Shown here in pieces: positions 8,689 through 27,686 of a stretch of 27,759 nucleotides of DNA. The stretch comes from Planctomycetota bacterium (lineage in GTDB: Bacteria > Planctomycetota > SZUA-567 > H5-PLA8): the NCBI GenBank assembly GCA_035628505.1, contig DASPJR010000027.1, positions 1-27,759 on the forward strand, read 5' to 3'. Under the pieces are notes generated by a model. That model was not told the origin of the DNA. It saw only the letters and a program-made list of their open reading frames with translations, and made no database searches. How positions within the stretch are numbered: position 1 is the first letter of the stretch; every line of letters begins with the position of its first letter. Both the position numbers and the translations under genes were made by a program.

Positions 8689-9582
8689 ATGCCTGAAGCC
8701 CGCGAACTGATTGACGACCGTGCCATGCAGCGCATCAGCAAGCTGCGTCTGGTGGCGCGCACCGTCGTTCAAAGCTTCATCTCCGGCCAGCACCGCAGCG
8801 TCTACAAGGGCTTCAGCGTCGAATTCGCGCAGCATCGCCAGTACGTGCGCGGCGACGAACTGCGCCACATCGACTGGAAAGTCTTCGCCAAAAGCGACCG
8901 CATCTTCGTCAAGCAGTACGAAGAAGAAACAAATCTGCGCGCCACAATCGTTCTCGATGCCAGCGGAAGCATGCTCTATAAGGGTGCAGGCGAGCAGAAA
9001 TTCGAGTACGCGCGCAAGCTCGCCGCTGCGTTGAGCTACCTGATGGTCGGCCAGTGCGACTCGGCCGGGTTGGTCACGTTCGACACCGAGGTCCGCTCGC
9101 ACATTCCCGCGCGCTCCACCAGTGGCCATCTCAACACGCTGCTGAACGTGCTCTCTGAAACCGAGCCGCGCGGCGAAACGAACCTGGCGCCGATCCTGCA
9201 GAACCTCAGTGCGCAGCTCAAGCGCCGCGGACTGGTGATCATTCTTTCTGATTTCTTCGCGCCGGTCGAAGAACTCACCAAGGCTCTGGGCCATTTTCAC
9301 CACAAGCGCCATGAAGTGATCCTGTTTCAGATCCTCGATCCGAACGAAGTCACGTTCCCGTTCGACAATGTCGCCGAGTTCCGCAGCCTCGAGAACAGCA
9401 ATATCAAGCTGCGCCTCGACGCGCCGCGCGTGCGCAAGCTGTACCTGGAACGGCTCGAAAAATTCACGCAGAAGCTTCGCGAGTCCTGCCACCGCTTTCA
9501 TTACGACCACGTCATGCTGCAGACCGACAGCCCGTATGACGCCGCGCTCAGCCACTATCTCATGAAGAGGCACGAGCGATGA
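8689..9582 (+). CDS. DUF58-family protein (vWA-like), the usual MoxR partner.
   Basis: YKGFSVEFAQHRQYVRGDELRHIDWKVFAKSDRIFVKQYEEE is the DUF58 signature. Sits 45 nt after moxR. Confidence 0.85.
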   Translation: MPEARELIDDRAMQRISKLRLVARTVVQSFISGQHRSVYKGFSVEFAQHRQYVRGDELRHIDWKVFAKSDRIFVKQYEEETNLRATIVLDASGSMLYKGAGEQKFEYARKLAAALSYLMVGQCDSAGLVTFDTEVRSHIPARSTSGHLNTLLNVLSETEPRGETNLAPILQNLSAQLKRRGLVIILSDFFAPVEELTKALGHFHHKRHEVILFQILDPNEVTFPFDNVAEFRSLENSNIKLRLDAPRVRKLYLERLEKFTQKLRESCHRFHYDHVMLQTDSPYDAALSHYLMKRHER

Positions 9583-9608
9583 ACCCGCGCGCGCGAGGAA
9601 ACAGCTGA

Positions 9609-11831: not shown

Positions 11832-14632
11832 GCGACTCAACGGTGGGCAATGCCGTCAACCTTGTCCTGACCGGCTACGCCTGGTGGCTGATGATTCCCG
11901 CATCGGCCGTGCTTGGCGTGCTGATCGCTCGGCTTTACATGAAGGAGACAGAAGGCTTCGGCAACGGCGGAATGTGGCTGCGCATGCTGCGTGCGGCCGT
12001 GGTGGTGATCCTGGTGTTGCTGCTCTCGCAACCTATTATTCACCGTGTGACAGCGCTGCACGAACCGCCTGTCGTGATCGTGCTGCGCGACCAGTCGACG
12101 AGCATGAGCGTCAAAGATACGCACGAGCCGATCGAGAAGAAAGTTCGCGCCGCAGTGGTGCTTGGCCTGCTCGATGGCAAACTTCGCGATCTTAATGCCG
12201 AGAACGCCGTGACATCCCTGACGTCGGCACTCACAGCGCTCGAGTCCGCAACAGGGGGCGTGCGGCAGGCAATGCAGCAGCTGCAGGAAAGCGGCGAAAG
12301 TTCAGCGGGCATCCAGGAGCGCCTGACGCAGGCGCGAAAGTACCTTTCCACTCTTGCTGCCGAATCGCGCAAGGCCGCCGATCTTCTCGCAGCGGCGCCG
12401 CTGGTTCAGCCGCATCAGAAACCCGCCGCCCTGAAAGCCGCCGAAATGGCCGCGGCTCTGGACAAGGACCTGAGCGAGGTTCCGCTGAAAAATGCGGACG
12501 CGCGCAAGTTCCTCATGGATAAGAGCCAGTCGCTTAAAGCACTCAAGCAGGATCTCACCCGCGTCACCGCCGATGCGCGCAAGCTGCAGGATCGCGTCGA
12601 TCGGGCGCTGGGCGAAAGCGGCAAGCAGCCGGTCAAGACTGCCATTGAAGCGATCGATAAGATGGACCGCATCACCTTCACGACGGCCATTCTGGACAAG
12701 TCCACGACGGAGCTTGGCGGCGAGCAGGCCCGGATCGTCAGCTACAATATTGATACGGATCTGCGCAGCCCGGACGGAAAATTTCTCGAACGCGAACCGG
12801 ACAAGAACGAGAGCAAGGACGCGAAGCCTGAAAAGCGCACCGACGCGCGCCAGACGCGCGCAGATACGGACCTCGCAACGCCGCTGCTTCGCCTGCTTGA
12901 AAAACACGCGCACGACACGGTCACATCTATTGTCCTCTGCAGCGACGGCCGCCACACCAGCGGACCGGCGCCAGAAGACGCCGCACGCGCCATCGCGGCG
13001 CGCGGCATCACCCTGCACTCGCTGGGAGTTGGCAGCACGGAAGCGCCGCCGGATATCTGCGTCGCACGCCTGGACGGCACGCTCTCGGTGTTCCTTGAAG
13101 AAACCATTCGCCTCACCGCGCAGATCAAATGCACGGGCTTGAAGAATCAGAAGTGTAAGCTCGCGCTGAAGTCGGGCGACAAAACGATCCAGGAACGCGT
13201 GCTCGCCATCGGTTCTGACGGCTGGCTCACCGAAACATTTGAGCTCACCGCAACGAAGAGCGGGCCCAATGCGTTCACGGCATCGATTGAACCACTGCCG
13301 GGCGAGGCGCTCACGACAAACAACAGCGCCGATGCCGTTGTCGATGTCGCCAACGACCGGCTGAAAGTCCTGGTTGTCGATGAACTTCCGCGCTGGGAAA
13401 CGCGTTATGTCGCCAGCCTCCTGCGCCGCGAGCGCAAAATGGAACTGAAAGAACGCTGGCTGATCAGCGGCGACGGAATGGGCCCACGGCCAAAGGCTCT
13501 GCCGGAAGAACAGAAAGGACTGGAAGAATACGACATCATTGTGCTGGGCGACGTAATGGCAGAACGGCTCGACGATGCCGCGCAGAAGCGCCTCGCGCGC
13601 TATGTCGCGGACAACGGCGGCTTTTTGGTCGTCATCGCCGGAAATAAAGCCATGCCGCGCGCGTACCCAAGTGGTCCGCTCGCCGATCTGCTGCCGATCA
13701 AGCAGCAACTCACGACCGGCGCTGCGGCAATGCTGACAGCCGATGCCACCGCCGGCGCGCGCGTGAAACTCGACGCGGACGGCAGCCGCAGCGAGATCGT
13801 ACGCGTTCTGCGTGATCCGGCGCTGAACGAGCAGCTCTGGCCGGCGCTTCCGGAACTGACCTGGATTGCGCGGCCCGCTTTCGCAAAGCCAGGCGCGACG
13901 ACGCTCCTTTATGCCGACGACGCGCGAAAGGATGCGGTCGTCGCCGTGCACAGCTACGGCGCGGGGCGTGTGCTTTATATCGGATCGGACAACACCTGGC
14001 GCTGGCGCTATAAAGTTGGCGACCGCGTGCACGCTGTCTTCTGGTCGCAGGCAATGCGCTGGGGTACCAGCAACCGCCTGACCGGCAATCCGCGGCTGAA
14101 AGTCGGGCTCGACCGCCGCCAGATCCGCCCCGGAGAGAACCTCGAAGTAATTGCGCGGCCGCGCGACAGGGCGGGCGCAGCCGTCGCCAATGCATTGGTC
14201 ATTGCCGAGCTCGAAGACCGCACGCGCCAGCAGCACGTTCAGCTTCAGCCGGTGGCCGACAGCGGCGGGCTGTACCGCGGTGTGCTGCAGAACATCGGCG
14301 CCGGCGTGCACTCGATCAAGATCAAAGTTCAGTCCCCCGACTTCGAAGGCATCGAAGAAACCCTGCAGGTCATTTCGCGCGAAGTGACCGGCCAGGAAGG
14401 CGTGGAACTTTCACGGGATACGGCGCGGCTCGCATCCCTGGCGCAGGCCGGCTCCGGCCGCAGCCTTGATATCCTGGAAGCGCGTCAGCTCTTCAAAGAA
14501 CTCGCCGGCCAGGGAAAGATCCGCACGGTCGAGTCCTCTTACGAACTATGGTCGTCGTACTGGGCGCTGCTGCTCGTGGTGGCGCTGCTGGCTGCCGAGT
14601 GGCTCCTGCGCAAAAAGATGGGCATGGCCTGA
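11828..14632 (+). CDS. Second BatA_N-type membrane protein (BatB-like). N-terminal double TM, a long coiled/extended region, a vWA-like segment (IVLCSDGRHTSG) and a GATase1-like domain (YDIIVLGDV...GGFLVVIAGN).
   Basis: ATG at 11828 overlaps the upstream stop (ATGA). SD ggaggtgg at 11816-11823. 935 aa. Confidence 0.7.
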   Translation: MSDSTVGNAVNLVLTGYAWWLMIPASAVLGVLIARLYMKETEGFGNGGMWLRMLRAAVVVILVLLLSQPIIHRVTALHEPPVVIVLRDQSTSMSVKDTHEPIEKKVRAAVVLGLLDGKLRDLNAENAVTSLTSALTALESATGGVRQAMQQLQESGESSAGIQERLTQARKYLSTLAAESRKAADLLAAAPLVQPHQKPAALKAAEMAAALDKDLSEVPLKNADARKFLMDKSQSLKALKQDLTRVTADARKLQDRVDRALGESGKQPVKTAIEAIDKMDRITFTTAILDKSTTELGGEQARIVSYNIDTDLRSPDGKFLEREPDKNESKDAKPEKRTDARQTRADTDLATPLLRLLEKHAHDTVTSIVLCSDGRHTSGPAPEDAARAIAARGITLHSLGVGSTEAPPDICVARLDGTLSVFLEETIRLTAQIKCTGLKNQKCKLALKSGDKTIQERVLAIGSDGWLTETFELTATKSGPNAFTASIEPLPGEALTTNNSADAVVDVANDRLKVLVVDELPRWETRYVASLLRRERKMELKERWLISGDGMGPRPKALPEEQKGLEEYDIIVLGDVMAERLDDAAQKRLARYVADNGGFLVVIAGNKAMPRAYPSGPLADLLPIKQQLTTGAAAMLTADATAGARVKLDADGSRSEIVRVLRDPALNEQLWPALPELTWIARPAFAKPGATTLLYADDARKDAVVAVHSYGAGRVLYIGSDNTWRWRYKVGDRVHAVFWSQAMRWGTSNRLTGNPRLKVGLDRRQIRPGENLEVIARPRDRAGAAVANALVIAELEDRTRQQHVQLQPVADSGGLYRGVLQNIGAGVHSIKIKVQSPDFEGIEETLQVISREVTGQEGVELSRDTARLASLAQAGSGRSLDILEARQLFKELAGQGKIRTVESSYELWSSYWALLLVVALLAAEWLLRKKMGMA

Positions 14633-20822: not shown

Positions 20823-21898
20823 TGAAAACGCATTGGCTCAGCTTTGTCATCACAGCGAGTTTTCTCGGCTGCGCAGCGCTAGGGGGTGACAAGCCCGTCG
20901 CCCGCGCGGCAACGGCGGCCGAAGACGAGGCAGCCATTCTGCGCAAGTTGCAGGACCGCGGCCCGCGCGACGCGGCGATCGAGAAGGCCGTCAACTTCCT
21001 GATTTCCACACAGAACAAGGACGGCAGCTTTGGCGAGAAACACAAGAATGCGCTCACGGGGCTGACCGTGATGGCGCTGATGGCGGCCGGCCATACGCCT
21101 GACTCTCCGCAGAATGGGCCCAAGATCCGCAACGCGCTCAACTTTATTCTTTCCCAGATGCGCAATGACGGGTACCTGGGGCACAGCGACCATTCGCGCA
21201 TGTACGGCCATGGAATCTGCACGCTGATGCTCACCGAAGCGGCGGGCATGACACGCGATGATGCACTTGAAAAACGGCTGATCGATGCCTGCCGCCGCGC
21301 CGTGGAGCTGATCCTGAAAGCACAGGCCGTGAAAAAGCAGGGGCATCACAATGGCGGCTGGCGCTACGAACCCAATAGCGGCGATAGTGATCTGTCGCTC
21401 ACCGGCTGGCAGACCATGTCGCTGCGCTCAGCTAAAAATATCGGCATCGATGTTCCGGGCACCGCGATTACGGCTGCAACCAACTACATCCGCGCGATGG
21501 CGCGCGATGGCGAGTTCTCTTACGAAGGCGGCGGCGGCCAGCCGACGTTGCGCGGAATCGGCCTGCTGGCGTTGCCTGTCTGCGGAGTATACGACGCGCC
21601 GGAGCTGGCAAAGGCGACGGCGAATATGCTGAAAGACCCGCCGAAGTGGCAGGGCCCCTGGTTCTATTACCGCCTTTATTACTCCACGATGGGCATGTAC
21701 CAGATGGGCGACGAGGCCTGGAACCGTTTCCATCCCATCGTCGACGACGTTTTGCTCAAGCAGCAGAAACCCGACGGAAGCTGGCCTGATCCTCCAGGGA
21801 ATAACGAGCAGGAGGCCGGCGGCGCGATCTATTCGACCAGCATGGCGATCCTTGTGCTCGCGGTGCACTATCATTTGCTTCCAATTTATCAGCGTTGA
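20822..21898 (+). CDS. Secreted or lipid-anchored prenyltransferase / squalene-oxidase-repeat (terpenoid-cyclase-like alpha/alpha-toroid) protein.
   Basis: Signal peptide MKTHWLSFVITASFLGCAALGG. Repeats GGWRY..., DGSFGEKHKNALTGLTVMALMAAG and KPDGSWPDPPG are typical of the PTase/SQCY repeat fold. Start overlaps the giant gene stop (TGATG). Confidence 0.75.
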   Translation: MKTHWLSFVITASFLGCAALGGDKPVARAATAAEDEAAILRKLQDRGPRDAAIEKAVNFLISTQNKDGSFGEKHKNALTGLTVMALMAAGHTPDSPQNGPKIRNALNFILSQMRNDGYLGHSDHSRMYGHGICTLMLTEAAGMTRDDALEKRLIDACRRAVELILKAQAVKKQGHHNGGWRYEPNSGDSDLSLTGWQTMSLRSAKNIGIDVPGTAITAATNYIRAMARDGEFSYEGGGGQPTLRGIGLLALPVCGVYDAPELAKATANMLKDPPKWQGPWFYYRLYYSTMGMYQMGDEAWNRFHPIVDDVLLKQQKPDGSWPDPPGNNEQEAGGAIYSTSMAILVLAVHYHLLPIYQR

Positions 21899-22056
21899 GA
21901 GTTTGCAAAAAAAGTTTTACGCCCTGTTTGCAGCGGAAGCGCATCGCCGCGGCTTCACTTTTTAGCCGCTGCCACGTACTCGCCGAAATTTCGTAAGCAG
22001 CAACTGGAAAAAGCAGAGCCCGCTTTAGATCCAGAAATTTTCTGCGCCTCAAAAAT

Positions 22057-22085
22057 TTGACATCCTGGAAACCAGGTGGTTAGTT
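22057..22085 (+). promoter_or_regulatory. Sigma70-like promoter candidate: -35 TTGACA at 22057-22062, a 17-nt spacer, and a weak -10 ttagtt at 22080-22085.
   Basis: Perfect -35 hexamer preceded by an A-tract (aaaaat). Located about 160 nt after the toroid gene stop. Confidence 0.4.
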
Positions 22086-22089
22086 CGTA

Positions 22090-22339
22090 ACACAGTTAGT
22101 TAGGAGAGTAGCAATTCGATGAACTGGGTCATGGCACAAATAAGCGGACATACACAGTACCTGTCCTATGCGGATCAGCGGACGGGTATCGTCGTATCGT
22201 TTAGTTTGCCGTGCCTCGGTCGTAAAGCTGAAAACAATCTGAACGCCCCCGAGACCGGGAGGCCCGCACCCTAGAAGGTTGAGTTCATGTGGAGATTCCA
22301 CAAACCTTCCAGGGTGCAAGCTCTGGAAGGTTTTTTTTT
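22090..22339 (+). ncRNA. Candidate small RNA of about 250 nt with unassigned family. Relatively AT-rich and ends at an intrinsic terminator.
   Basis: No ORF of at least 60 aa on the plus strand here (track minimum). Bounded by a promoter-like site and by terminator ccttccag-ggtgcaagct-ctggaagg followed by T8 (22304-22339). GC content is visibly lower than the flanking DNA. Confidence 0.4.
22304..22339 (+). terminator. Rho-independent terminator. 8-bp GC-rich stem CCTTCCAG/CTGGAAGG, a 10-nt loop, then TTTTTTTT.
   Basis: Perfect inverted repeat 22305-22312 / 22323-22330, followed by a T8 run at 22331-22338. Confidence 0.75.
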
Positions 22340-22500
22340 ACCCGAGCGAAAAGGAGTTCAACATGCAGGTACGTGCTGACTAAACAGTAGTTCCTGATTT
22401 CGACTCGCGATGAAACGTGAAAACGCAGCGACTGGCGTTGCCGCGAGAGGAGTGTTGTTGTCACTTTTCTAAGGAGGTTCATGCAGTCGCCGTTCGGTTT

Positions 22501-22574
22501 GCGGATGTAGCTCAGTGGCAGAGTACGAGCATGCCAAGCTCGAGACGCGGGTCCGATTCCCGCCTTCCGCACCA
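22501..22574 (+). tRNA. tRNA-Gly(GCC). CCA is encoded. T-loop TCCGATT is non-canonical (C55).
   Basis: Cloverleaf: acceptor GCGGATG/CTTCCGC, D-arm GCTC-AGTGGCA-GAGT, anticodon arm CGAGC-aTGCCAa-GCTCG. Confidence 0.7.
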
Positions 22575-22634
22575 AGCTCAGCTTCACTCACCGGGGAGAC
22601 GCGGAGGCGCTGAGAACAGATTGGAAAAGTTCGG

Positions 22635-22705
22635 GCCGCGGTGTGAGGGTCACGCGCCTCTCCCGTAAAGAGGCTGAGCAGGTTCAACTCCTGCCTGCGG
22701 CTCCA
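22635..22705 (+). pseudogene. Degenerate tRNA-like element related to Cys, with a truncated D-arm. Has acceptor GCCGCGG/CTGCGGC, discriminator U, CCA and T-arm GCAGG-TTCAACT-CCTGC.
   Basis: Anticodon-like hairpin CCTCT-CCCGTAA-AGAGG has C33. The D region is only 15 nt. Its 3' end, CTGCGGC-T-CCA, mirrors that of the Cys tRNA at 25014. Confidence 0.35.
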
Positions 22706-22712
22706 AACAGAT

Positions 22713-22740
22713 GTGACGGGTGACGGGTGGCGGGTAACGA
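22713..22740. repeat. Tandem heptamer repeat, GTGACGG family x4.
   Basis: gtgacgg gtgacgg gtggcgg gtaacga. The same family recurs at 26109-26142. Confidence 0.7.
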
Positions 22741-22777
22741 CACCCAGACTCAAGACTCCCGACTCATGACTATTGTT

Positions 22778-22848
22778 TGCGGTGTCGCGTAATGGTAGCG
22801 CGCCTGCCTGTTAAGCAGGAAGTAGAGGTTCGAATCCTCTCTCCGCAG
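22778..22848 (+). tRNA. tRNA-Asn(GTT).
   Basis: U1-A72 acceptor TGCGGTG/CTCCGCA, discriminator G73. Anticodon arm CCTGC-cTGTTAa-GCAGG. T-arm AGAGG-TTCGAAT-CCTCT. Confidence 0.65.
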
Positions 22849-22856
22849 TGTGAAGT

Positions 22857-22931
22857 GGGGCGATGGTGAAATCAGGATCATACGACGTTCGCATCGTCGC
22901 GTCCCGGGTGCAACTCCCGGTCGCTCCACCA
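22857..22931 (+). tRNA. tRNA-Ala(CGC)-like. Has G3:U70, A73 and CCA, but a non-canonical T-loop TGCAACT (G55) and an unusual D-arm. Possibly non-functional.
   Basis: Acceptor GGGGCGA/TCGCTCC. Anticodon arm CGACG-tTCGCAt-CGTCG. T-arm CCGGG-TGCAACT-CCCGG. Total 75 nt. Confidence 0.45.
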
Positions 22932-22940
22932 GAGAAAAAC

Positions 22941-23013
22941 GCCTTCGAGGTGTTAGCGGCAGCACAGCGGGTTCTTACCCCGTGAGGTGGAGGTTCAAGT
23001 CCTCCCGGAGGCA
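22941..23013 (+). tRNA. tRNA-Lys(CTT).
   Basis: Acceptor GCCTTCG/CGGAGGC, discriminator A73. D-arm GTGT-TAGCGGCA-GCAC. Anticodon arm GCGGG-tTCTTAc-CCCGT. T-arm GGAGG-TTCAAGT-CCTCC. Confidence 0.7.
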
Positions 23014-23021
23014 TGGAAGGC

Positions 23022-23093
23022 AGCTCTTAGCTCTTGGCTGTTGGCTCTTGGAGTTGCGTTGCAATGTCTGTTCCAAGAGCCAAGAGCTAAGAG
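23022..23093. repeat. Hairpin built from GGCTCTT-family heptamers.
   Basis: 5' arm gctcttagctcttggctgttggctcttgga, an 18-nt loop, 3' arm tccaagagccaagagctaagagc. Confidence 0.7.
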
Positions 23094-23111
23094 CCTAGAG
23101 CCGCAACAGCC

Positions 23112-23184
23112 GCGTTCGTAGCTCGAGCGGCAGAGCAGCCGCCTTTTAAGCGGCAGGGTGTGGGTTCGAGCCCCACCGGACGCA
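23112..23184 (+). tRNA. tRNA-Lys(TTT).
   Basis: Acceptor GCGTTCG/CGGACGC, discriminator A73. D-arm GCTC-GAGCGGCA-GAGC. Anticodon arm GCCGC-cTTTTAa-GCGGC. T-arm GTGGG-TTCGAGC-CCCAC. Confidence 0.8.
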
Positions 23185-23190
23185 TGAAGA

Positions 23191-23261
23191 TGCCGGGTCG
23201 TCCAGCGGCAGGACGCCTGACTCTGAATCAGGAAAGCGAGGTTCGAATCCTTGCCCGGCAA
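23191..23261 (+). tRNA. tRNA-Gln(CTG).
   Basis: U1-A72 acceptor TGCCGGG/CCCGGCA, as in bacterial Gln. D-arm GTCC-AGCGGCA-GGAC. Anticodon arm CCTGA-cTCTGAa-TCAGG. T-arm CGAGG-TTCGAAT-CCTTG. Confidence 0.75.
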
Positions 23262-23282
23262 TGGAAGGGCCAGTAGGCGGAA

Positions 23283-23372
23283 GGCAGTGGGCAGGAGGCA
23301 GTGGGCAGGGAACAAAAGAAGACTGAGTGGACGGTGCAGAACGCTGAGCCTCACTCCTGGCTCAGTTTTCCG
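23283..23372. repeat. GGCAGTG/GGCAGGA heptamer tandem at 23283-23310, followed by a terminator-like hairpin GCTGAGCC-tcactcct-GGCTCAGT plus TTTT at 23344-23372.
   Basis: ggcagtgggcaggaggcagtgggcaggg, then gctgagcctcactcctggctcagtttt. Confidence 0.5.
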
Positions 23373-23398
23373 TACTGCTCATTCAGAGGGAACGCAGG

Positions 23399-23469
23399 TG
23401 GCCTGTCGTCCAATGGGAGGACGGCGGACTTTGAATCCGCCTATCGAGGTTCGAATCCTCGCGGGCCAG
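23399..23469 (+). tRNA. tRNA-Gln(TTG).
   Basis: U1-A72 acceptor TGGCCTG/CGGGCCA, discriminator G73. D-arm GTCC-AATGGGA-GGAC. Anticodon arm GCGGA-cTTTGAa-TCCGC. T-arm CGAGG-TTCGAAT-CCTCG. Confidence 0.8.
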
Positions 23470-23517
23470 TAACGCGCGTTGCGAACTCGCGGGGGCAGTG
23501 CTGACGGAGAGCGACAG

Positions 23518-24072
23518 ATGAAAACGCCATTTTTAATTGGAGATCGCATCTGCCTGCGGCCGCTGGAGCGCGAGGACGCGCGCGTGCTGGAGTTTTACAT
23601 CAACGATCCGGATGTCACACGCACGCTGCAGGCATACCGCCCGATGAATCTGCAGATCGAGGAAGACTGGATCGCGGATCTCTACAAGAAGGAAAGCGAC
23701 ATCGTGCTCGGTATCGCGATCAAGAGCAGCGACAAGCTGATCGGTGCGACCGGTCTGCATCGACTGGAATTCAAAGACAGGCGCGCGGAGTTCGGAATCA
23801 GCATCGGCGCGAAGGAAGAGTGGGACAAAGGTTACGGCACCGAGGCCACGCGGCTAATCGTCGGCTACGGCTTCGAGACGCTGAACCTCAACAGGATCAG
23901 CTTGCGCGTGTACGAGCACAATCCTCGAGCGCAGCGCGCGTACGAGAAGGCAGGCTTCAAAAAGGAAGGCGTGCTGCGCAAGGAAGTCTACAGGCTCGGC
24001 CGCTATTGGGACACGATCGTGATGGGCATATTGCGCGAGGAATGGGACGCCCTCGCGGCAAGCAAGAAGTGA
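23518..24072 (+). CDS. GNAT N-acetyltransferase of the RimJ/RimL-like (Acetyltransf_3) family, embedded in the tRNA array.
   Basis: 184 aa. WDKGYGTEATRLIVGYGFETLNLNRISLRVYEHNPRAQRAYEKAGFKKEGVLRKE matches the RimJ/L core. SD ggaga sits 8 nt before ATG 23518. Confidence 0.8.
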   Translation: MKTPFLIGDRICLRPLEREDARVLEFYINDPDVTRTLQAYRPMNLQIEEDWIADLYKKESDIVLGIAIKSSDKLIGATGLHRLEFKDRRAEFGISIGAKEEWDKGYGTEATRLIVGYGFETLNLNRISLRVYEHNPRAQRAYEKAGFKKEGVLRKEVYRLGRYWDTIVMGILREEWDALAASKK

Positions 24073-24076
24073 GGAC

Positions 24077-24107
24077 GTGGGGCAGCGCGAACGAACGCCT
24101 GCCCCAC
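24077..24107 (+). terminator. GC-rich stem-loop immediately after the GNAT stop codon. No U-tract follows, so it may be a terminator or a processing hairpin.
   Basis: gtggggcag-cgcgaacgaacgc-ctgccccac. Confidence 0.35.
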
Positions 24108-24119
24108 GCAGGGCGCGAG

Positions 24120-24190
24120 CGGGCGTTAGTGCCGGTGGCACTGGCGAGTCTTATAAACCCGCTGGCCGGGTTCAACTCCCGGGCGCCCGA
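24120..24190 (+). pseudogene. Degenerate tRNA-like element. Acceptor CGGGCGT/GCGCCCG, T-arm CCGGG-TTCAACT-CCCGG, a tight GTGC-CGGTG-GCAC D hairpin and an anticodon-like loop CTTATAA with a mismatched stem.
   Basis: Manual fold; the D-arm and anticodon stem are irregular. Its T-arm is closely related to that of the Ala-like tRNA at 22857. Confidence 0.3.
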
Positions 24191-24202
24191 CTGAACTGAT
24201 GA

Positions 24203-24274
24203 GCCGGGATGGCGTAGGGGTCTGCGCGTCCGCCTGAAGAGCGGAAGGTGATCGTTCGACTCGATCTTCCGGCA
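24203..24274 (+). tRNA. tRNA-Phe(GAA).
   Basis: Acceptor GCCGGGA/TTCCGGC, discriminator A73. Anticodon arm TCCGC-cTGAAGa-GCGGA. T-arm GATCG-TTCGACT-CGATC. Confidence 0.75.
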
Positions 24275-24284
24275 TGTGAACGAC

Positions 24285-24365
24285 GGTTTCTGGTTTGAAG
24301 TTTCTGGTCTCTGGCTAATTGCAGCTTGCACTGAACCAGAAACTAGAAACCAGAAACCTGAAACC
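24285..24365. repeat. Hairpin built from CCAGAAA/GGTTTCT heptamers.
   Basis: 5' arm ggtttctggtttgaagtttctggtctctgg. 3' arm ccagaaactagaaaccagaaacctgaaacc. Confidence 0.75.
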
Positions 24366-24373
24366 GAATTTAA

Positions 24374-24446
24374 CGGGGCGTAGCGTAGCGGCTAACGCGC
24401 CTGCGTCGGAAGCAGGAGAACGTCGGTTCGAATCCGGCCGCTCCGA
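24374..24446 (+). tRNA. tRNA-Pro(CGG).
   Basis: C1-G72 acceptor CGGGGCG/CGCTCCG, discriminator A73, as expected for Pro. D-arm GCGT-AGCGGCTA-ACGC. Anticodon arm CCTGC-gTCGGAa-GCAGG. T-arm GTCGG-TTCGAAT-CCGGC. Confidence 0.75.
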
Positions 24447-24460
24447 TGGGAGAACGACGG

Positions 24461-24547
24461 CTTCTGGTTTGAGGTTTCTAGTTTCTAGTTAACTGCTGAT
24501 CGCGCGAAACCAGAAACAGGAAACCAGAAACCAGAAACAGAGGTTTG
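24461..24547. repeat. Hairpin built from CCAGAAA/GGTTTCT heptamers.
   Basis: 5' arm cttctggtttgaggtttctagtttctagtt. 3' arm gaaaccagaaacaggaaaccagaaaccagaaacag. Confidence 0.75.
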
Positions 24548-24622
24548 CGGGACGTAGCTCAGCTTGTTGAGAGCGCCTGGTTTGGAACCAGGAGGTCGCA
24601 GGTTCAAATCCTGCCGTTCCGA
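24548..24622 (+). tRNA. tRNA-Pro(TGG).
   Basis: C1-G72 acceptor CGGGACG/CGTTCCG, discriminator A73. D-arm GCTC-AGCTTGTTGA-GAGC. Anticodon arm CCTGG-tTTGGAa-CCAGG. T-arm GCAGG-TTCAAAT-CCTGC. Confidence 0.8.
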
Positions 24623-24670
24623 TTATGCAAAAACGTCAGCAGCAACCGACAGCGGCTGAGGTGAACTGGA

Positions 24671-24745
24671 CGGACGGTGTTGTAGGGGGCTGCAGATCTG
24701 CCTGATAAGCAGAAGGTGGAGGTTGGACTCCTCCCCGTCCGACCA
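24671..24745 (+). tRNA. tRNA-Ile(GAT)-like. CCA is encoded. Unusual C1-G72 acceptor and a non-canonical T-loop TTGGACT (G56).
   Basis: Acceptor CGGACGG/CCGTCCG. Anticodon arm TCTGC-cTGATAa-GCAGA. T-arm GGAGG-TTGGACT-CCTCC. Confidence 0.55.
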
Positions 24746-24760
24746 GAAAGGAGCGAAGAC

Positions 24761-24832
24761 GTCTCTGTCAGCTAGTGGCAAGCTACCGCGCTTTCAACGC
24801 GGCAACCGTGGGTTCGATTCCCCGTAGAGACA
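24761..24832 (+). tRNA. tRNA-Glu(TTC). T-stem is imperfect (GTGGG/CCCCG).
   Basis: Acceptor GTCTCTG/TAGAGAC. D-arm AGCT-AGTGGCA-AGCT. Anticodon arm CCGCG-cTTTCAa-CGCGG. T-loop TTCGATT. Confidence 0.6.
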
Positions 24833-24833
24833 T

Positions 24834-24907
24834 GTGTCCTGGGTGTGACGATTGCACGCGAGAATGTGAGTCTCGTAGAGCCGGTTTGACTCCGGCAGGA
24901 CACCCCA
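24834..24907 (+). tRNA. tRNA-His(GTG). CCA is encoded and the discriminator is C73. Starts 1 nt after tRNA-Glu. The -1 position is T, so G-1 is not encoded.
   Basis: Acceptor GTGTCCT/AGGACAC. D-arm GTGT-GACGATT-GCAC. Anticodon arm CGAGA-aTGTGAg-TCTCG. T-arm GCCGG-TTTGACT-CCGGC (non-canonical T56). Confidence 0.6.
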
Positions 24908-24913
24908 AAGGTG

Positions 24914-25001
24914 TGGTTTCTGGTTTCGAGTTTCTGGTTTCTGGTTTCTGGTTAAGGGCCGATTGCACTGAACCAGAAACCAGAAACTAAGAACCAGAAA
25001 C
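24914..25001. repeat. Hairpin built from CCAGAAA/GGTTTCT heptamers.
   Basis: 5' arm tggtttctggtttcgagtttctggtttctggtttctggtt. 3' arm aaccagaaaccagaaactaagaaccagaaacc. Confidence 0.75.
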
Positions 25002-25013
25002 CGTAGTCAGGAG

Positions 25014-25088
25014 GGCCGCGTGGCCGAGCACATAGGCACCCGCCTGCAGAGCGGGGCAACGCAGGTGAAAATCCTGCCGCGGCCTCCA
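25014..25088 (+). tRNA. tRNA-Cys(GCA). U73 discriminator and encoded CCA. T-loop TGAAAAT is non-canonical.
   Basis: Acceptor GGCCGCG/CGCGGCC. Anticodon arm CCCGC-cTGCAGa-GCGGG. T-arm GCAGG-TGAAAAT-CCTGC. Three-bp D-stem. Confidence 0.6.
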
Positions 25089-25206
25089 GATGTTCTGAGG
25101 TGGGCGATCGCGATCTGGATAGCGCTGTTTGTGGTCAGCATTGTAAGTGCGATTTGCGCGATGTTTTGAGGAAGCGCCCGATGCGAGCAGAGCTCGCATT
25201 CGGGAG

Positions 25207-25285
25207 GGCTGCGTGGCTGAGCAGCGAAGGCAACCGTTGAAATGTCAACGGGAGAGGTTGGGTGCAATTCCCTTCCGCAGCCTCA
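25207..25285 (+). pseudogene. Cys-related tRNA-like pseudogene. The anticodon arm is replaced by a 7-bp stem with a tetraloop.
   Basis: Acceptor GGCTGCG/CGCAGCC, then U and CA. Same D-region as the Cys tRNA (GCTG-AGCAGCGA-AGGC). Hairpin CCGTTGA-aatg-TCAACGG is not a 7-nt anticodon loop. T-arm is degenerate. Confidence 0.35.
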
Positions 25286-25294
25286 GCCGAAAAT

Positions 25295-25368
25295 GCTCTC
25301 GAAGGCGAAGCAGTGGAGCCGCCACTCTGTCGAAGTGGATGAAGCCGGTGCGACTCCGGCCGGGAGCG
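25295..25368 (+). tRNA. tRNA-Asp(GTC). Discriminator G73. T-loop TGCGACT is non-canonical (G55).
   Basis: Acceptor GCTCTCG/CGGGAGC. Anticodon arm CCACT-cTGTCGa-AGTGG. T-arm GCCGG-TGCGACT-CCGGC. Confidence 0.55.
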
Positions 25369-25373
25369 TGAAA

Positions 25374-25437
25374 CGATTGCGGATTGCGAATTTCGGATTG
25401 CGGATTGGCTTTCAATCCCAAATCCGCAATCCGAAAT
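25374..25437. repeat. Hairpin built from CGGATTG/CAATCCG heptamers.
   Basis: 5' arm gattgcggattgcgaatttcggattgcggattgg. 3' arm cccaaatccgcaatccgaaat. Confidence 0.7.
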
Positions 25438-25442
25438 AAAGA

Positions 25443-25515
25443 AGCGGGTGGCTAGGCCTGGGGGTCTGGCGGGTCTCATAAGCCTGCAATGGCGGTTCGA
25501 TTCCGCTGCCCGCAA
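25443..25515 (+). tRNA. tRNA-Met(CAT) candidate. Has a 1:72 mismatch, an A73 discriminator and an initiator-like D-loop (GCCTGG), but the D-stem is irregular.
   Basis: Anticodon arm CGGGT-cTCATAa-GCCTG. T-arm GGCGG-TTCGATT-CCGCT. 3' end GCCCGCA-A resembles the bacterial initiator 3' end. Confidence 0.4.
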
Positions 25516-25523
25516 TGGGAATG

Positions 25524-25596
25524 GGTTTCTAGTTTCTGGTTTCTCGTTTCTGGTTCAGTGCAGTCGCCGTTAACCAGAAACCAGAAACCAGAAACC
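25524..25596. repeat. Hairpin built from CCAGAAA/GGTTTCT heptamers.
   Basis: 5' arm ggtttctagtttctggtttctcgtttctggtt. 3' arm aaccagaaaccagaaaccagaaacc. Confidence 0.75.
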
Positions 25597-25704
25597 GCAG
25601 TTTAGAGAGGCTGAGCTGCCGGGGCCAGCGGCGCCCGGGACCTTGCGTGAGCAATCGGTCTCGTGTGTTCCGAACATGGCATGTGACGAAGGCGGCGACG
25701 CGAG

Positions 25705-25781
25705 CGCCATATAGCTCATCTGGATAGAGCATCGGTCGAAAGAACCGACGGTAGTGGGTTCGACTCCCACTATGGCTACCA
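25705..25781 (+). tRNA. tRNA-like gene with canonical D- and T-arms and an encoded CCA, but a non-canonical anticodon loop CGAAAGA (G33; formal anticodon AAA) and a C1:U72 mismatch. Identity is unresolved and it may be a pseudogene.
   Basis: D-arm GCTC-ATCTGGATA-GAGC. Anticodon stem TCGGT/ACCGA. T-arm GTGGG-TTCGACT-CCCAC. 3' end TATGGCT-A-CCA. Confidence 0.4.
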
Positions 25782-25805
25782 CTGGCAAGGGTCTGAAAAA
25801 CCCGA

Positions 25806-25829
25806 GCAGGTTCAAATCCTGCAACCGCC
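25806..25829 (+). other. Orphan tRNA 3' fragment. Its T-arm GCAGGTTCAAATCCTGC is identical over 17 nt to the T-arm of tRNA-Pro(TGG) at 24598-24614.
   Basis: No upstream acceptor, D-arm or anticodon arm can be folded. Confidence 0.6.
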
Positions 25830-26108
25830 TGTTAAGCGGATCGAGGCTGAAGGGGGGCGAGAGTTGCGACTGACCGGCTGACGCGAAGTGCTCAGATAGA
25901 TTTCACGCAGCAGCACGAGAGGGCGCTTTGCAGCGCGCGGATTCGCTGAGGAACAAACCGCCGGACGCCCGGCGAACTCGACGGCTGGCCTGTACTGGAG
26001 CCGCACGAGGACGCCGCCGCCGAACGCGGGAGTAGCCGCAGCTCAAGTATCGCTCCGCGCCCGACGTGTGGACAGCACAGCAACTCGCCTCCTGGATGCC
26101 ATTACTGC

Positions 26109-26142
26109 TGTGACGGGTGACGAGTGGCGGGTGACGGGTGGC
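26109..26142. repeat. Tandem heptamer repeat, GTGACGG family x5.
   Basis: gtgacgg gtgacga gtggcgg gtgacgg gtggc. Confidence 0.7.
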
Positions 26143-26149
26143 AATCGCG

Positions 26150-26295
26150 GAAGAGTTTCCCTCTCCCCTCCGGGGAGAGGGCGGACATGAGCGGAGCGAA
26201 TGCCGGGTGAGGGGTTCGCGTTTGCTGCAAGAGACGGTTACCCCTCACCCCGGACTCGCTGCGCTCGCTCGGCCCTCTCCCCGGAGGGGAGAGGG
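26150..26295. repeat. REP/MITE-like nested palindromic element, copy 2. Two CCCTCTCCCC-nnn-GGGGAGAGGG palindromes flank a GGGTGAGGGGT...ACCCCTCACCC palindrome.
   Basis: Palindromes at 26165-26187, 26208-26263 and 26271-26293. Core is homologous to 4677-4760. Confidence 0.6.
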
Positions 26296-26344
26296 ATCGC
26301 CGGGTGCACGCAAGTTTGGTAACGAAGCAGGAGGGGAGGAAACG

Positions 26345-27454
26345 ATGATGGCTATGCGCAAGTTCAAGATCGGCACGCACGAACGCGGCCTGCTGTTCGA
26401 AGAAAACGAGTTCAAGGTGATGCTCGACCCGGGCCGCCACTGGTTCTTCGATCCGCTGTGGAAGCTTCGCGTGGACAAGGTCTCTGTCCGCGAGGCGCAG
26501 CTTCGCCACAAGGACCTGGACGTCATCGTGAAGTCCGGCGCGCTGAAGGACGTGGCGAAGGTCGTCGACCTGAAGGATCACGAACGCGCGGTGGTGTGGG
26601 TTGACGGCCGCGTGGAAACGGTTCTGAAGCAGGGCCTGTACGCCTTCTGGACGGTCTTCCACGACGTCCGCGTGGAAGTCTTCGACGCGCGCGAAGTCCG
26701 CTTCGAGCACGCCGAGCTTCCGGCGATCCTGCAGGCGCGCGACGCCGGCACGCCGCTTGACGTCTACACGGTTGAGGTCGGCTACACGGGCCTCTTCTTC
26801 AAGGACGGCGAGTTCAAGTCGGCGCTGAAGCCGGGCACGCATGCGTTCTGGAAGGGCGTCAACCGCGTGCGCATCCACAACGTGGATCTGCGCGAGCAGG
26901 TCTGCGACGTGGCGGGCCAGGAAATCGTGACGGCCGACAAGGTCACGCTGCGCCTGAACGCCGTCGTGACGTACCGCGTAGCGGACGCGCTGAAGGCGGT
27001 GACGACGGTGGATGACTACAAGCAGGCGCTGTACCGCGAGGCGCAGCTTGCTCTGCGCGCGGTGGTCGGTACCCGCGAGCTCGACACGCTGCTGAGCGAG
27101 AAGGACAGTGTGGCGAAGGAGCTGGAAGGCCTGCTGAAGAACCGCGCGACGGCGTTCGGCGTGGAAGTGAACACGCTGGGCATCAAGGACATCATCCTGC
27201 CGGGCGAGATGAAGGACTTGATGAACAAGGTGACGGAAGCGAAGAAGGCTGCTGAAGCCACGCTCATCACGCGCCGCGAAGAAACGGCCGCGATGCGCAT
27301 GCAGGCCAACACGGCCAAGATCCTCGAGAACAACCCGACGCTCATGCGCCTGCGTGAGCTCGAAGTGCTCGAGAAGATCTCGGAAAAGTCGAACCTGAAG
27401 GTTGTGCTCGGCGACCAGAAGGGTCTCGTCGACCGTGTGGTGAAGGTGCTGTAA
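26345..27454 (+). CDS. SPFH/band-7 (stomatin/prohibitin/flotillin-like) domain protein.
   Basis: 369 aa. SPFH core ...VTADKVTLRLNAVVTYRVADALKAVTTVDDYKQALYREAQLALRAVVGTRELDTLLSEKDSVAKELEG... SD ggaggggagga before ATG 26345. The longer upstream ORF extension, which runs through the REP element, was rejected. Confidence 0.8.
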   Translation: MMAMRKFKIGTHERGLLFEENEFKVMLDPGRHWFFDPLWKLRVDKVSVREAQLRHKDLDVIVKSGALKDVAKVVDLKDHERAVVWVDGRVETVLKQGLYAFWTVFHDVRVEVFDAREVRFEHAELPAILQARDAGTPLDVYTVEVGYTGLFFKDGEFKSALKPGTHAFWKGVNRVRIHNVDLREQVCDVAGQEIVTADKVTLRLNAVVTYRVADALKAVTTVDDYKQALYREAQLALRAVVGTRELDTLLSEKDSVAKELEGLLKNRATAFGVEVNTLGIKDIILPGEMKDLMNKVTEAKKAAEATLITRREETAAMRMQANTAKILENNPTLMRLRELEVLEKISEKSNLKVVLGDQKGLVDRVVKVL

Positions 27455-27650: not shown

Positions 27651-27686
27651 TGTTGGCTCTTGGCTCTTGGCTCTTGGCTCTTGGAG
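27651..27686. repeat. Tandem GGCTCTT heptamer x4-5 immediately 3' of tRNA-Leu. Same module as after tRNA-Lys(CTT) at 23036-23053.
   Basis: tgttggctcttggctcttggctcttggctcttggag. Confidence 0.8.

Follow-up and report, generated by a model that had tools for sequence, protein, structure and literature searches.

A planctomycete tRNA gene array that encloses a SpeG-like acetyltransferase gene and lies behind a putative leader-peptide attenuator

We analysed a stretch of 27,759 nucleotides from a Planctomycetota bacterium (GenBank assembly GCA_035628505.1, contig DASPJR010000027.1, positions 1 to 27,759), hereafter the window, which carries a dense array of tRNA genes on its forward strand. The window is part of a 30-kb ENA metagenome contig, and a Logan assembly contig (L002) that is 100% identical across window positions 23210-24598 supports the array independently. 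As read from the sequence, the order of the predicted operon is a promoter, a leader-peptide attenuator, eight tRNA genes, a gene for a SpeG-like GNAT acetyltransferase, about 12 tRNAs or tRNA-likes and a gene for an SPFH protein. The interpretation developed below, to which we give an even chance of being correct, is that the array is an inducible supplementary tRNA operon that would be read through, together with the acetyltransferase and SPFH genes, when translation of the leader slows.

The tRNA genes were identified with ARAGORN at default settings, with relaxed and still lower (ps80) thresholds for extra members, and with the Rfam model RF00005 at its gathering score. At default settings ARAGORN placed 16 tRNA genes between 22501 and 25781, every one of them on the + strand. 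Rfam reported 15 in the same stretch, with scores of 43.8-70.7 bits. Rfam added Ala-CGC (22857-22928, 49.1 bits) and Asp-GTC (25295-25368, 43.8 bits) to the ARAGORN default set, while ARAGORN added Thr-CGT-like (22635-22705), Ile-TAT (24120-24191) and Met-CAT (25443-25515) to the Rfam set. The union of the two holds 18 tRNA genes (Gly-GCC, Thr-CGT-like, Asn-GTT, Ala-CGC, Lys-CTT, Lys-TTT, Gln-CTG, Gln-TTG, Ile-TAT, Phe-GAA, Pro-CGG, Pro-TGG, Ile-GAT, Glu-TTC, Cys-GCA, Asp-GTC, Met-CAT and one with an aberrant anticodon loop), with two or three degenerate elements besides, all on the + strand within 22501-25835. The relaxed ARAGORN threshold yielded His-GTG (24834-24907), and the still lower one a Cys-like element (25207-25284). 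The members of the array, the hairpins between them and the two protein-coding genes are as follows.

22501-22574, + strand: tRNA-Gly(GCC), CCA encoded, T-loop TCCGATT (Rfam 64.8 bits; ARAGORN)
22635-22705, + strand: tRNA-Thr(CGT)-like gene with a miniature D-arm (4-bp stem, 3-nt loop), C33, U73 and CCA (ARAGORN only; under the Rfam threshold)
22777-22849, + strand: tRNA-Asn(GTT), canonical, without CCA, U74 (Rfam 68.1 bits)
22857-22931, + strand: tRNA-Ala(CGC), G3:U70, T-loop TGCAACT, CCA (Rfam 49.1 bits; ARAGORN at the relaxed threshold)
22941-23013, + strand: tRNA-Lys(CTT) (ARAGORN, Rfam)
23020-23104, + strand: heptamer hairpin between the Lys genes
23112-23184, + strand: tRNA-Lys(TTT) (ARAGORN, Rfam)
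23191-23261, + strand: tRNA-Gln(CTG) (ARAGORN, Rfam), followed by a structured spacer with GGCAGTG repeats
23399-23469, + strand: tRNA-Gln(TTG) (ARAGORN, Rfam)
23518-24072, + strand: GNAT acetyltransferase gene, 184 amino acids, Acetyltransf_3, SpeG-like (Pfam 1.8e-28)
24120-24191, + strand: tRNA-Ile(TAT), short D-loop, without CCA (ARAGORN)
24203-24274, + strand: tRNA-Phe(GAA) (ARAGORN, Rfam)
24285-24365, + strand: hairpin between Phe and Pro(CGG)
24374-24446, + strand: tRNA-Pro(CGG) (ARAGORN, Rfam)
24453-24545, + strand: hairpin between the Pro genes
24548-24622, + strand: tRNA-Pro(TGG) (ARAGORN, Rfam)
24671-24745, + strand: tRNA-Ile(GAT), T-loop TTGGACT, CCA
24761-24832, + strand: tRNA-Glu(TTC)
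24834-24907, + strand: tRNA-His(GTG), T-loop TTTGACT, C73, CCA, no G-1 (ARAGORN at the relaxed threshold)
24915-25002, + strand: heptamer hairpin, GGTTTCT units in one arm and AGAAACC in the other
25014-25088, + strand: tRNA-Cys(GCA), T-loop TGAAAAT, U73, CCA (ARAGORN, Rfam 49.4 bits)
25207-25284, + strand: degenerate Cys-like paralogue, 8-nt anticodon loop, T-loop TGCAATT (ARAGORN only at ps80)
25295-25368, + strand: tRNA-Asp(GTC), T-loop TGCGACT, G73, without CCA (Rfam 43.8 bits)
25376-25437, + strand: heptamer hairpin, GCGGATT units in one arm and AATCCGC in the other
25443-25515, + strand: tRNA-Met(CAT)-like gene, D-arm an 8-bp hairpin with a 4-nt loop (ARAGORN)
25524-25596, + strand: heptamer hairpin after tRNA-Met, different by a single 7-nt unit from its counterpart in the ENA contig of the same population
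25705-25781, + strand: tRNA-like element derived from tRNA-Arg(TCT), anticodon loop degenerate (CGAAAGA, G33), CCA encoded (ARAGORN, Rfam 49.3 bits)
25782-25835, + strand: tRNA 3' fragment with a variable-arm-like hairpin, a T-arm and an acceptor-like strand (read from the sequence)
26345-27454, + strand: SPFH/Band_7 gene (Pfam 1.6e-36), the conserved downstream partner of the GNAT gene

A preliminary description of this DNA had claimed a dense single-strand array of about 18 tRNAs, and this claim is borne out by the two programs together. All 17 of the tRNAs that it named were recovered by at least one tool, and Thr-CGT-like and Ile-TAT are two array genes that it had missed. Its spacer lengths agree with the sequence and the ARAGORN structures (Glu-His 1 nt, Asn-Ala 7 nt, Ala-Lys 9 nt, Lys-Gln 6 nt), as do the identity elements it had listed (G3:U70 for Ala, U1:A72 for both Gln, C1:G72 for both Pro, U73 for Cys, C73 for His and G73 for Asp) and the deviant T-loops it had read (Ala TGCAACT, Asp TGCGACT, Cys TGAAAAT, Ile-GAT TTGGACT and Gly TCCGATT). 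The isoacceptor pairs, the very short spacers, the non-canonical members and the embedded enzyme gene, here the GNAT, were likewise all found. Spacers between members range from 1 to 137 nt, and the single orientation is compatible with co-transcription. The density is about 6 tRNA genes per kb (18-20 in 3.3 kb, including the 555-nt protein-coding gene). ARAGORN found no tRNA gene elsewhere in the 27.8-kb window, and tRNAs for Leu, Ser, Tyr, Trp and Val and a functional tRNA-Arg are not among the array members that it detects. The open reading frames of the window favour GGC (64%), ACG (51%), GCG (41%), AAG (64%), CAG (87%) and CCG (52%) within their codon families, and the anticodons of the array match these preferred codons, so that the tRNAs are fitted to this host.

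The same kind of array surrounds the GNAT gene in five further lineages, whose GNAT proteins are 64-70% identical to that of the window: P0003 (L074/75/76), P0006 (L158), P0002 (L159), P0010 (L160) and P0008 (L161). Where the contigs reach, the shared order is Lys, Gln, (Gln or Gly), GNAT, Ile-TAT, (Phe), Pro, (Pro), Ile-GAT, His, Cys, Asp, Met, (Val), the Arg-TCT-derived element and SPFH/Band_7, with further members ahead of Lys. These relatives allowed a covariation comparison with three or four sequences per tRNA family. Orthologous array tRNAs are 81-97% identical between lineages, and most of the non-canonical members 85-97%, compared with 70-75% for the GNAT genes at the nucleotide level and 38-67% for the spacers. 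For example, Ile-TAT always lies directly 3' of the GNAT gene and is 89-94% identical to its L074, L158 and L159 orthologues, with two compensatory pairs; the Asp-type gene is 97% identical to its L159 and 90.5% identical to its L074 counterpart, with two compensatory changes in the anticodon stem. The Met-CAT-like gene, whose best Rfam match is tRNA-Sec at 31 bits, below threshold, is 96% identical to its L074 orthologue and shows four compensatory pairs. The Cys-type family likewise shows four compensatory pairs and the His-like family three. The L074 orthologue of the Thr-CGT-like gene (84% identity) has the same odd D-arm. The tRNA stems are thus kept by compensatory changes, those of the non-canonical members included, which indicates that these are selected RNAs and not products of decay.

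T-loops without U55 or C56 occur in 7 of the 20 members, and the comparison separates those that are conserved from those that are private to the window. In the Ala-CGC family the T-loops of three lineages are TGCAACT, TGCAACT and TGCGAAT (the TGC T-loop and the CGC anticodon being kept in L074 and L158), in the Asp-GTC family TGCGACT, TGCGACT and TGCAACT, and in the Cys-GCA family TGAAAAT, TGTAATT and TGAGACT, so that U54-G55 is kept in three lineages. Conversely, Gly U55C, Ile-GAT C56G and His C56U are found only in the window, and their orthologues are canonical; the L074 tRNA-Gly(GCC), at 90% identity, has the T-loop TTCGATT. No orthologue of the Cys-like paralogue at 25207-25284 was found in L074 or L159, and it is specific to the window lineage. 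Judged from these alignments, the odd members appear to form three groups, namely conserved and selected non-canonical tRNAs, recent point changes and a few real remnants. The earlier view that several members are degenerate or decayed is therefore upheld for 25207-25284, 25782-25835 and the anticodon loop of 25705-25781, and it fails for most of the others, which are conserved with compensatory stem changes. The whole array could in principle be a decaying, non-functional relic of tRNA gene duplications, and the window-specific T-loop mutations (Gly, Ile-GAT, His), the scrambled anticodon loop, the Cys-like copy with its 8-nt loop, the 3' fragment and the repeats of about 95 nt that interrupt three tRNA genes in L158 all point that way. 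However, tRNAs that remain 81-97% identical with compensatory stem substitutions where the spacers cannot be aligned, and a replacement of CCA by U74 that is systematic and not random, make this extremely improbable.

The 3' ends of the genes bear on the same question. In L074 and L159 nearly every array tRNA encodes CCA, as read from the sequence. In the window, 13 members lack CCA, and 11 of these 13 have U straight after the discriminator (U74). Cleavage by Bacillus subtilis RNase Z is favoured by U74 and blocked by CCA. The U74 pattern therefore fits maintained 3' processing better than decay, and on these sequences the shift from CCA to U74 looks like a change of processing route. CCA is kept in 5 of the 7 deviant-T-loop members and in 2 of the 13 canonical ones (Fisher exact p = 0.022). 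Poor handling of the deviant members by elbow-reading enzymes could account for the retention of CCA on them.

The conserved U54-G55 T-loop raises the possibility that the members which have it (Ala-CGC, Asp-GTC, Cys-GCA and the Cys-like paralogue) are non-proteogenic tRNAs, which would be charged normally, kept away from EF-Tu and the ribosome, and used to donate their amino acids to some non-ribosomal acceptor, for example the cell envelope, a lipid or a natural product. Such tRNAs have until now been reported only for staphylococcal tRNAGly, in which the T-loop TTC is replaced by TGC or TGT and binding to EF-Tu is poor (PMC7826273). The genes described here share with it the TGC/TGN T-loop, conserved across three lineages in each family, the retained aminoacylation identity elements (anticodons, G3:U70, G73 and U73), and the clustering, and their stems co-vary. 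They differ in being of Ala, Asp and Cys isotypes, in belonging to another phylum, in having no Fem-type transferase nearby and in being known here from their genes alone. Neither the window nor the related loci hold a gene resembling Fem, MprF, L/F-transferase or cyclodipeptide synthase, the embedded GNAT resembles SpeG and not Fem, and each family is represented by only three sequences. We consider this explanation improbable; it can coexist with an inducible supplementary operon as the explanation for the other members. As a natural set that departs from the near-universal U55/C56 rule and still keeps its identity elements, these conserved tRNAs are useful for asking what the tRNA elbow does and whether tRNAs with non-ribosomal roles exist outside staphylococci.

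The last elements of the array have a history of their own. The L159 orthologue of the element at 25705-25781 is a normal tRNA-Arg(TCT) scoring 74.9 bits, whereas in three lineages, namely the window, L074 and the array-less L071, the body is kept and the anticodon loop is scrambled. The element (L071 6849-6923, L074 4542-4612, L159 1898-1973) always lies just upstream of the SPFH gene. The AGA codon is used 0 times in the 6843 codons of the window's open reading frames, which may explain why only the body of tRNA-Arg(TCT) is kept. It is possible that the element acts as an RNA-processing signal before the SPFH mRNA rather than as a decoder. The adjoining 3' fragment at 25782-25835 has a similar block in L074 at 4613-4670. 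The wider block 25782-25860 (L074 4613-4700) resembles the 3' half of a class II tRNA, with a T-arm GCAGG-TTCAAAT-CCTGC, an acceptor-like strand and then a small hairpin, and no 5' half matching it was found. We considered the region of about 25600-25860 as a split or permuted transfer-messenger RNA or as a class II tRNA with an inserted tRNA; neither had support from any tool, and the block is kept here as a tRNA 3' fragment.

The acetyltransferase gene anchors the comparison among relatives. The closest solved structures to the GNAT protein are SpeG spermidine N-acetyltransferases, with 28-36% identity and query-normalised template modelling (TM) scores of 0.75-0.81 for a model with a predicted local distance difference test (pLDDT) value of 84. 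Against the NCBIfam SpeG equivalog it scores 71 bits where the cut-off is 218, and on the modelled structure it is best described as a probable relative of SpeG and not as a confirmed member. We also considered the GNAT as a tRNA-acetylating toxin or defence gene and rejected this, since PADLOC gave no match for either the GNAT or the SPFH protein, there is no antitoxin-like neighbour and the closest relatives are SpeG enzymes. GNAT homologues are very numerous at 55-72% identity and occur in several phyla. Among 80 more distant GNAT loci scanned in JGI metagenomes, an array was present only in an already known contig (L078, which is the same as L076), and a general association between this GNAT family and tRNA genes was rejected for this reason. 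Outgroup GNATs also lack the leader described below.

An SPFH gene follows the GNAT and array in L075 and L159, and it follows the GNAT in contigs that have no array. Array-less lineages with both genes are P0007 (L071), P0009 (L077) and P0018, and L071 keeps only the last tRNA-like element of the array. In a rough neighbour-joining tree the array-less GNATs (L071, L077, P0018) form a subclade nested among the array-bearing ones. Given that this nested subclade keeps the leader, the GNAT and the SPFH gene, the array appears to be dispensable at this locus. The distribution, with six lineages that have the array and three nested lineages that do not, fits one gain and one loss, as placed on that tree, better than repeated transfer. 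The preliminary description had stated that its view of the cluster as accessory would fall if this were the sole copy of these isoacceptors, conserved in all relatives. The relatives answer this by half, since the array is kept in many of them and is absent from the nested subclade.

The region between the upstream genes and tRNA-Gly was compared in four lineages, namely the window, L074, L071 and L077, the last of which was added after a three-way alignment. It contains the following features in the window.

22057-22085, + strand: promoter-like site, TTGACA-17 nt-TTAGTT, inside conserved GGTTAGTT (recognised by conservation only)
22102-22106, + strand: Shine-Dalgarno sequence AGGAG, 12-13 nt ahead of the start codon in the four lineages
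22119-22274, + strand: leader upstream open reading frame (uORF) of 51 codons, ATG 22119 to TAG 22274, ending ...RPAP-stop (called as a 51-amino-acid gene by gene callers)
22266-22317, + strand: antiterminator, in which GCACCCTAGAAGG (22266-22278, holding the uORF stop codon) pairs with CCTTCCAGGGTGC (22305-22317, the terminator 5' arm and loop) and encloses a small hairpin
22302-22342, + strand: intrinsic terminator, a 14-bp stem followed by T9 (terminator scan), about 160 nt upstream of the first tRNA

The motif TTGACA-N17-(GG)TTAGTT is invariant in the alignment of the window, L074 and L071 and is present in L077. A generic sigma-70 scan of 21800-26400 scored no promoter, the conserved TTGACA site included, and the pattern TTGACA-N15-19-TANNNT had no match. 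The uORF has 41-51 codons in the four lineages and ends in Ala-Pro-TAG in each of them (RPAP, APAP, KAAP or GAAP), and the remaining peptide is not conserved; a gene of 53 amino acids lies upstream of the P0018 GNAT. The 5' strand of the antiterminator, GCACCCTAG, which contains the stop codon, is invariant in the four leaders and complementary to the terminator 5' arm and loop. The antiterminator helix folds in all four lineages, with energies of -23.3 to -30.9 kcal/mol (RNAfold, on RNA without the terminator 3' arm), and the terminator with -21.1 to -25.6 kcal/mol, the window showing a compensatory G:C to A:U change in its stem. The two structures are mutually exclusive. On sequence and predicted folding, the leader thus appears to have the anatomy of a ribosome-dependent attenuator, with a Shine-Dalgarno sequence and uORF, an intrinsic terminator and an alternative helix that extends over the stop codon. 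In L071 and L077 the GNAT starts only about 25 and about 34 nt after the T-run, which leaves no room for a promoter, so that expression of the GNAT there would need read-through of the terminator. Scans between 22342 and the SPFH gene found no other consensus promoter and no strong + strand terminator.

As for a known RNA family, none reached its Rfam threshold in the leader of the window, L074 or L071, and the microRNA matches that Rfam returned are heptamer hairpins with scores that fall far short of it. Two very short reading frames, each behind a strong Shine-Dalgarno sequence, lie after the terminator and ahead of or at the start of tRNA-Gly. The first (window 22350-22385) has AAGGAG-N6-ATG and 6 codons, and may be a remnant of the original GNAT translation start; the second (window 22470-22510) has AAGGAGG-N3-ATG and 9 codons and runs into the first bases of tRNA-Gly.

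These observations must be set against another explanation, that the array is an ordinary housekeeping tRNA operon which is transcribed constitutively from an unrecognised promoter and merely adjoins a separately terminated small gene or small RNA and the GNAT. The conserved order of the array in six lineages, the very good conservation of the canonical members (58-71 bits in Rfam), the match between anticodons and the most-used codons and the lack of any sign of mobility would all be expected of such an operon. It would not be expected to be missing from a nested subclade (L071, L077, P0018) that keeps the leader, GNAT and SPFH gene, nor to follow immediately on a terminator (14 bp, T9) with no consensus promoter in between. 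Moreover, T-loops without U55 or C56 in 7 of 20 members would be unusual for sole-copy elongator tRNAs, and the array has no Leu, Ser, Tyr, Trp, Val or functional Arg tRNA. We therefore regard the housekeeping explanation as rather unlikely.

The preliminary description had taken the array to be horizontally mobile. The flanks of the window were therefore of interest, and they contain ordinary genes. Upstream of the array, at 7606-14632, lies a complete MoxR (AAA_3), DUF58 and BatA/VWA aerotolerance-type operon followed by a gene for a 2037-amino-acid PA14/DUF4175 protein, all of them ordinary genes of a chromosome that have no relation to the array. The upstream flank also encodes a PEP-utilising enzyme and a prenyltransferase-like protein that is 82% identical to a protein of one Planctomycetota metagenome-assembled genome (MAG) and 63-69% identical to those of three others. 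We located 68 loci in Planctomycetota and Planctomycetes-Verrucomicrobia-Chlamydiae (PVC) MAGs through the upstream gene. In the four closest, tRNA, GNAT and SPFH genes are all absent downstream of the prenyltransferase-like gene, so that synteny, as far as these sequences tell, breaks at the upstream edge of the array locus, and the comparison through the upstream gene shows nothing more. The flanks of the window carry no gene for an integrase or transposase and no phage gene, and mobile-element genes are likewise absent from the flanks of L074, L071 and L077; the L074 flank encodes an MBOAT protein. A megablast search of the window against phages gave no match, distant BLAST searches of phage and plasmid collections returned single generic tRNAs with no match at the level of the array, and a scan of IMG/VR with one array-conserved motif was empty. 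A phage origin was first suggested by the 2037-amino-acid reading frame and was ruled out by its PA14 and DUF4175 domains, its position after the BatA/MoxR/DUF58/VWA operon and the lack of a phage megablast match. By these comparisons the DNA is planctomycete chromosome and not phage or plasmid.

Lys, Gln, Glu, Asn, His and Asp tRNAs are typical nuclease targets. All six isotypes occur in the array, and together with the isoacceptor pairs, the non-canonical members and the fact that the gene order shared with the closest MAGs breaks off exactly where the locus begins on its upstream side, this is what would be seen if a mobile or phage-derived array had been acquired horizontally and compensated codon usage or replaced host tRNAs cleaved by nucleases; long arrays in other phyla have spread by horizontal transfer (PMC8421152). 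The claim of mobility finds no support in the flanks, in the phage and plasmid collections, where similarity is limited to single tRNAs, or in the order kept in at least six planctomycete lineages. In addition, the two proteins have no PADLOC match, the anticodons suit the codon usage of the host, the leader-GNAT-SPFH backbone is common to the array-less relatives, and the distribution of the array follows the GNAT tree. A horizontally acquired array is, in our judgement, very unlikely.

An inducible supplementary operon would accommodate these findings as follows. Transcription would start at the conserved TTGACA-N17-TTAGTT site, and a ribosome would translate the 51-codon uORF. A ribosome that keeps pace with the polymerase would reach the Ala-Pro-UAG end and cover GCACCCUAGAAGG. 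Translation termination after proline is slow, which would prolong ribosome occupancy at the end of the uORF. With GCACCCUAGAAGG covered, the downstream CCUUCCAGGGUGC would be free, the terminator would form and transcription would end before the first tRNA. Were translation slowed anywhere in the uORF, whether by ribosome-targeting compounds, by shortage of or damage to tRNA or by excess polyamine, the antiterminator would form instead and the polymerase would read through the entire array, the GNAT gene and the SPFH gene. The tRNAs would be cut from the polycistronic RNA, the CCA-less U74 members by an RNase Z-type route with CCA addition, and the CCA-encoding members would be trimmed exonucleolytically. 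The outcome would be an inducible extra pool of tRNAs that matches the codons preferred by the host. That the uORF senses a general slowing of elongation would be the simplest reading, and inhibition of translation by polyamine as a feedback on an ancestral SpeG-like operon is a matter of speculation. The sequences themselves establish the array, its conservation under purifying selection, the uORF, the two helices that exclude each other and the place of this leader immediately ahead of the GNAT in relatives that have no array; from these we infer the regulatory logic, co-transcription, the processing routes and the supplementary status of the tRNAs. For its history, the most economical sequence of events would be that an attenuated GNAT-SPFH operon came first, that tRNA genes then built up on both sides of the GNAT, filling the intervals that separate it from the terminator and from the SPFH gene, and that the array was later lost in one subclade.

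Several points weigh against this proposal of an inducible operon. The uORF has no run of regulatory codons, and its conserved signal is limited to the C-terminal Ala-Pro-UAG. The attenuator was compared in four lineages only, as the contigs of L158-L161 end short of the 5' leader, and the GNAT tree is rough, being built by neighbour joining from proteins of 184 residues. Little is known of promoters in planctomycetes, and an internal one could have been missed. The window-specific changes Gly U55C, Ile-GAT C56G and His C56U could be signs that selection has relaxed in this lineage. The term supplementary is deduced from the loss of the array in the subclade and from the terminator ahead of it, and the host is uncultured, the locus being known here as sequence alone. 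A further and quite doubtful extension would make the locus a two-part device, in which the canonical members are a reserve set by the speed of leader translation and Ala-CGC, Asp-GTC and Cys-GCA carry amino acids to a non-ribosomal acceptor as non-proteogenic tRNAs. If true, the supply of tRNA would respond directly, by feedback, to the speed of translation.

Long tRNA arrays are widespread and, to our knowledge, their function is known essentially for one case, that of Anabaena. The long array of Anabaena 7120 (the trn operon) is silent and is induced by any ribosome-targeting antibiotic (PMC8421152), and it is controlled by a repressor that acts on direct repeats (PMC8421152, PMC10272220). 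Like the Anabaena array, the planctomycete array consists of about 20-26 closely spaced tRNA genes on the same strand, includes unusual members and is absent from some close relatives, and the leader suggests that it too would be induced when translation is impaired. Unlike the Anabaena array, it is chromosomal without mobility genes, is interrupted by a protein gene and lies behind a leader-peptide terminator/antiterminator. Tran et al. (2016) defined a tRNA array unit as at least 20 tRNA genes at a density of at least 2 per kb and placed Planctomycetes among the phyla with rare arrays (PMC4758250). The density here exceeds theirs, whereas the count is borderline, with 18 solid genes and 20-21 only if the His-like and Cys-like elements and the fragment are included; their survey describes no regulatory leader and no embedded enzyme gene. 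Compared with the long arrays (L-arrays) of the second survey (PMC8421152), the orientation and spacing agree and there is no strong internal terminator, whereas the hallmark of horizontal transfer (a mobile context, homing endonuclease) was looked for here and is absent. On the suggestion that such an array is undescribed, long arrays are listed for Planctomycetes in both surveys (PMC4758250, PMC8421152); for the architecture of leader-peptide attenuator, GNAT and SPFH gene we found no description in the literature.

The leader itself resembles those of the trp/his/pheL type and of B. subtilis yxjB (PMC6851288), in that a promoter and a Shine-Dalgarno sequence precede a uORF whose end overlaps an antiterminator, and this antiterminator and the terminator exclude each other. 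It differs from these attenuators in having only Ala-Pro before UAG in place of a regulatory codon run, and in that the controlled genes would be tRNAs and a SpeG-like GNAT. Our literature search found no report of a tRNA operon under leader-peptide attenuation. What is new here is the attenuator before the array, the conserved embedding of the GNAT with its SPFH partner, the array-less sister lineages and the conserved Ala, Asp and Cys tRNAs without U55/C56. If the proposal is right, it would add a second and mechanistically different mode of control, in which transcription of tRNA genes is coupled directly to ribosome speed, at a locus that is maintained vertically within a clade of uncultured planctomycetes. 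The locus offers concrete, testable sequences, namely the uORF, which ends in Ala-Pro-UAG, and the two competing helices of antiterminator and terminator. Array-bearing and array-less lineages on one backbone show how an operon that is already regulated can take up an array.

The spacers of the array carry repeats of a distinct kind. Six of them contain hairpins (23020-23104, 24285-24365, 24453-24545, 24915-25002, 25376-25437 and 25524-25596), the arms of which are 3-6 tandem heptamers set against complementary heptamers (GGTTTCT/AGAAACC, GCTCTTG/CAAGAGC, GCGGATT/AATCCGC). One-armed heptamer runs occur at 22713-22771, 23271-23309, 26110-26140 and 27653-27684, and the period-7 repeats of the window are all confined to this non-coding stretch. 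The hairpins have no U-tracts and are long enough to be RNase III substrates. The heptamer family of the hairpin at 25376-25437 is found at the same position in L074 and L159, and heptamer repeats with other units occur in the intergenic DNA of L071, L074, L159, L160 and L161, which indicates a clade-wide intergenic feature and not one specific to the array. The window differs from the ENA contig L001, of the same population, by 5 single-nucleotide polymorphisms (SNPs) and one indel (differences include positions 25576/25577, 24352 and 22793), with one SNP in the D-loop of tRNA-Asn and one in a heptamer arm. The indel lies in the hairpin that follows tRNA-Met, where it amounts to exactly one 7-nt unit of the right arm, indicating that heptamer arms change by gain or loss of units between strains. 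Like the cyanobacterial STRR and Beggiatoaceae TAACTGA repeats (PMC4679880), these are tandem 7-nt intergenic units with lineage-specific heptamers; unlike them, the units here form hairpins (n units against n complementary ones), lie between tRNA genes and vary in heptamer from spacer to spacer.

Other repeats and rearrangements were seen in the window and its relatives. In L158 a repeat of about 95 nt (GGCGGTGTGCCACCGC...GCGGCGCC) is inserted, in both orientations, inside three tRNA genes, an Ala-like, a Lys and a Pro gene (55-150, 460-580 and 1495-1600), and it resembles a miniature mobile element for which tRNA genes are either targets or tolerated sites. L074 (2522-2597) and L076 (2522-2802) encode an identical GNAT protein and differ by one Lys tRNA unit of about 205 bp, which suggests that gain or loss of units in the array is ongoing; L074 also carries an apparent Lys-CTT/Lys-TTT recombinant. 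Finally, the spacer of about 560 nt upstream of the SPFH gene contains, at window 26158-26296, nested near-perfect palindromes (TCCCTCTCCCCTCCGGGGAGAGGG... with ...CCCTCTCCCCGGAGGGGAGAGGGA) around a second inverted repeat, which resemble repetitive extragenic palindromic (REP)-like intergenic elements.

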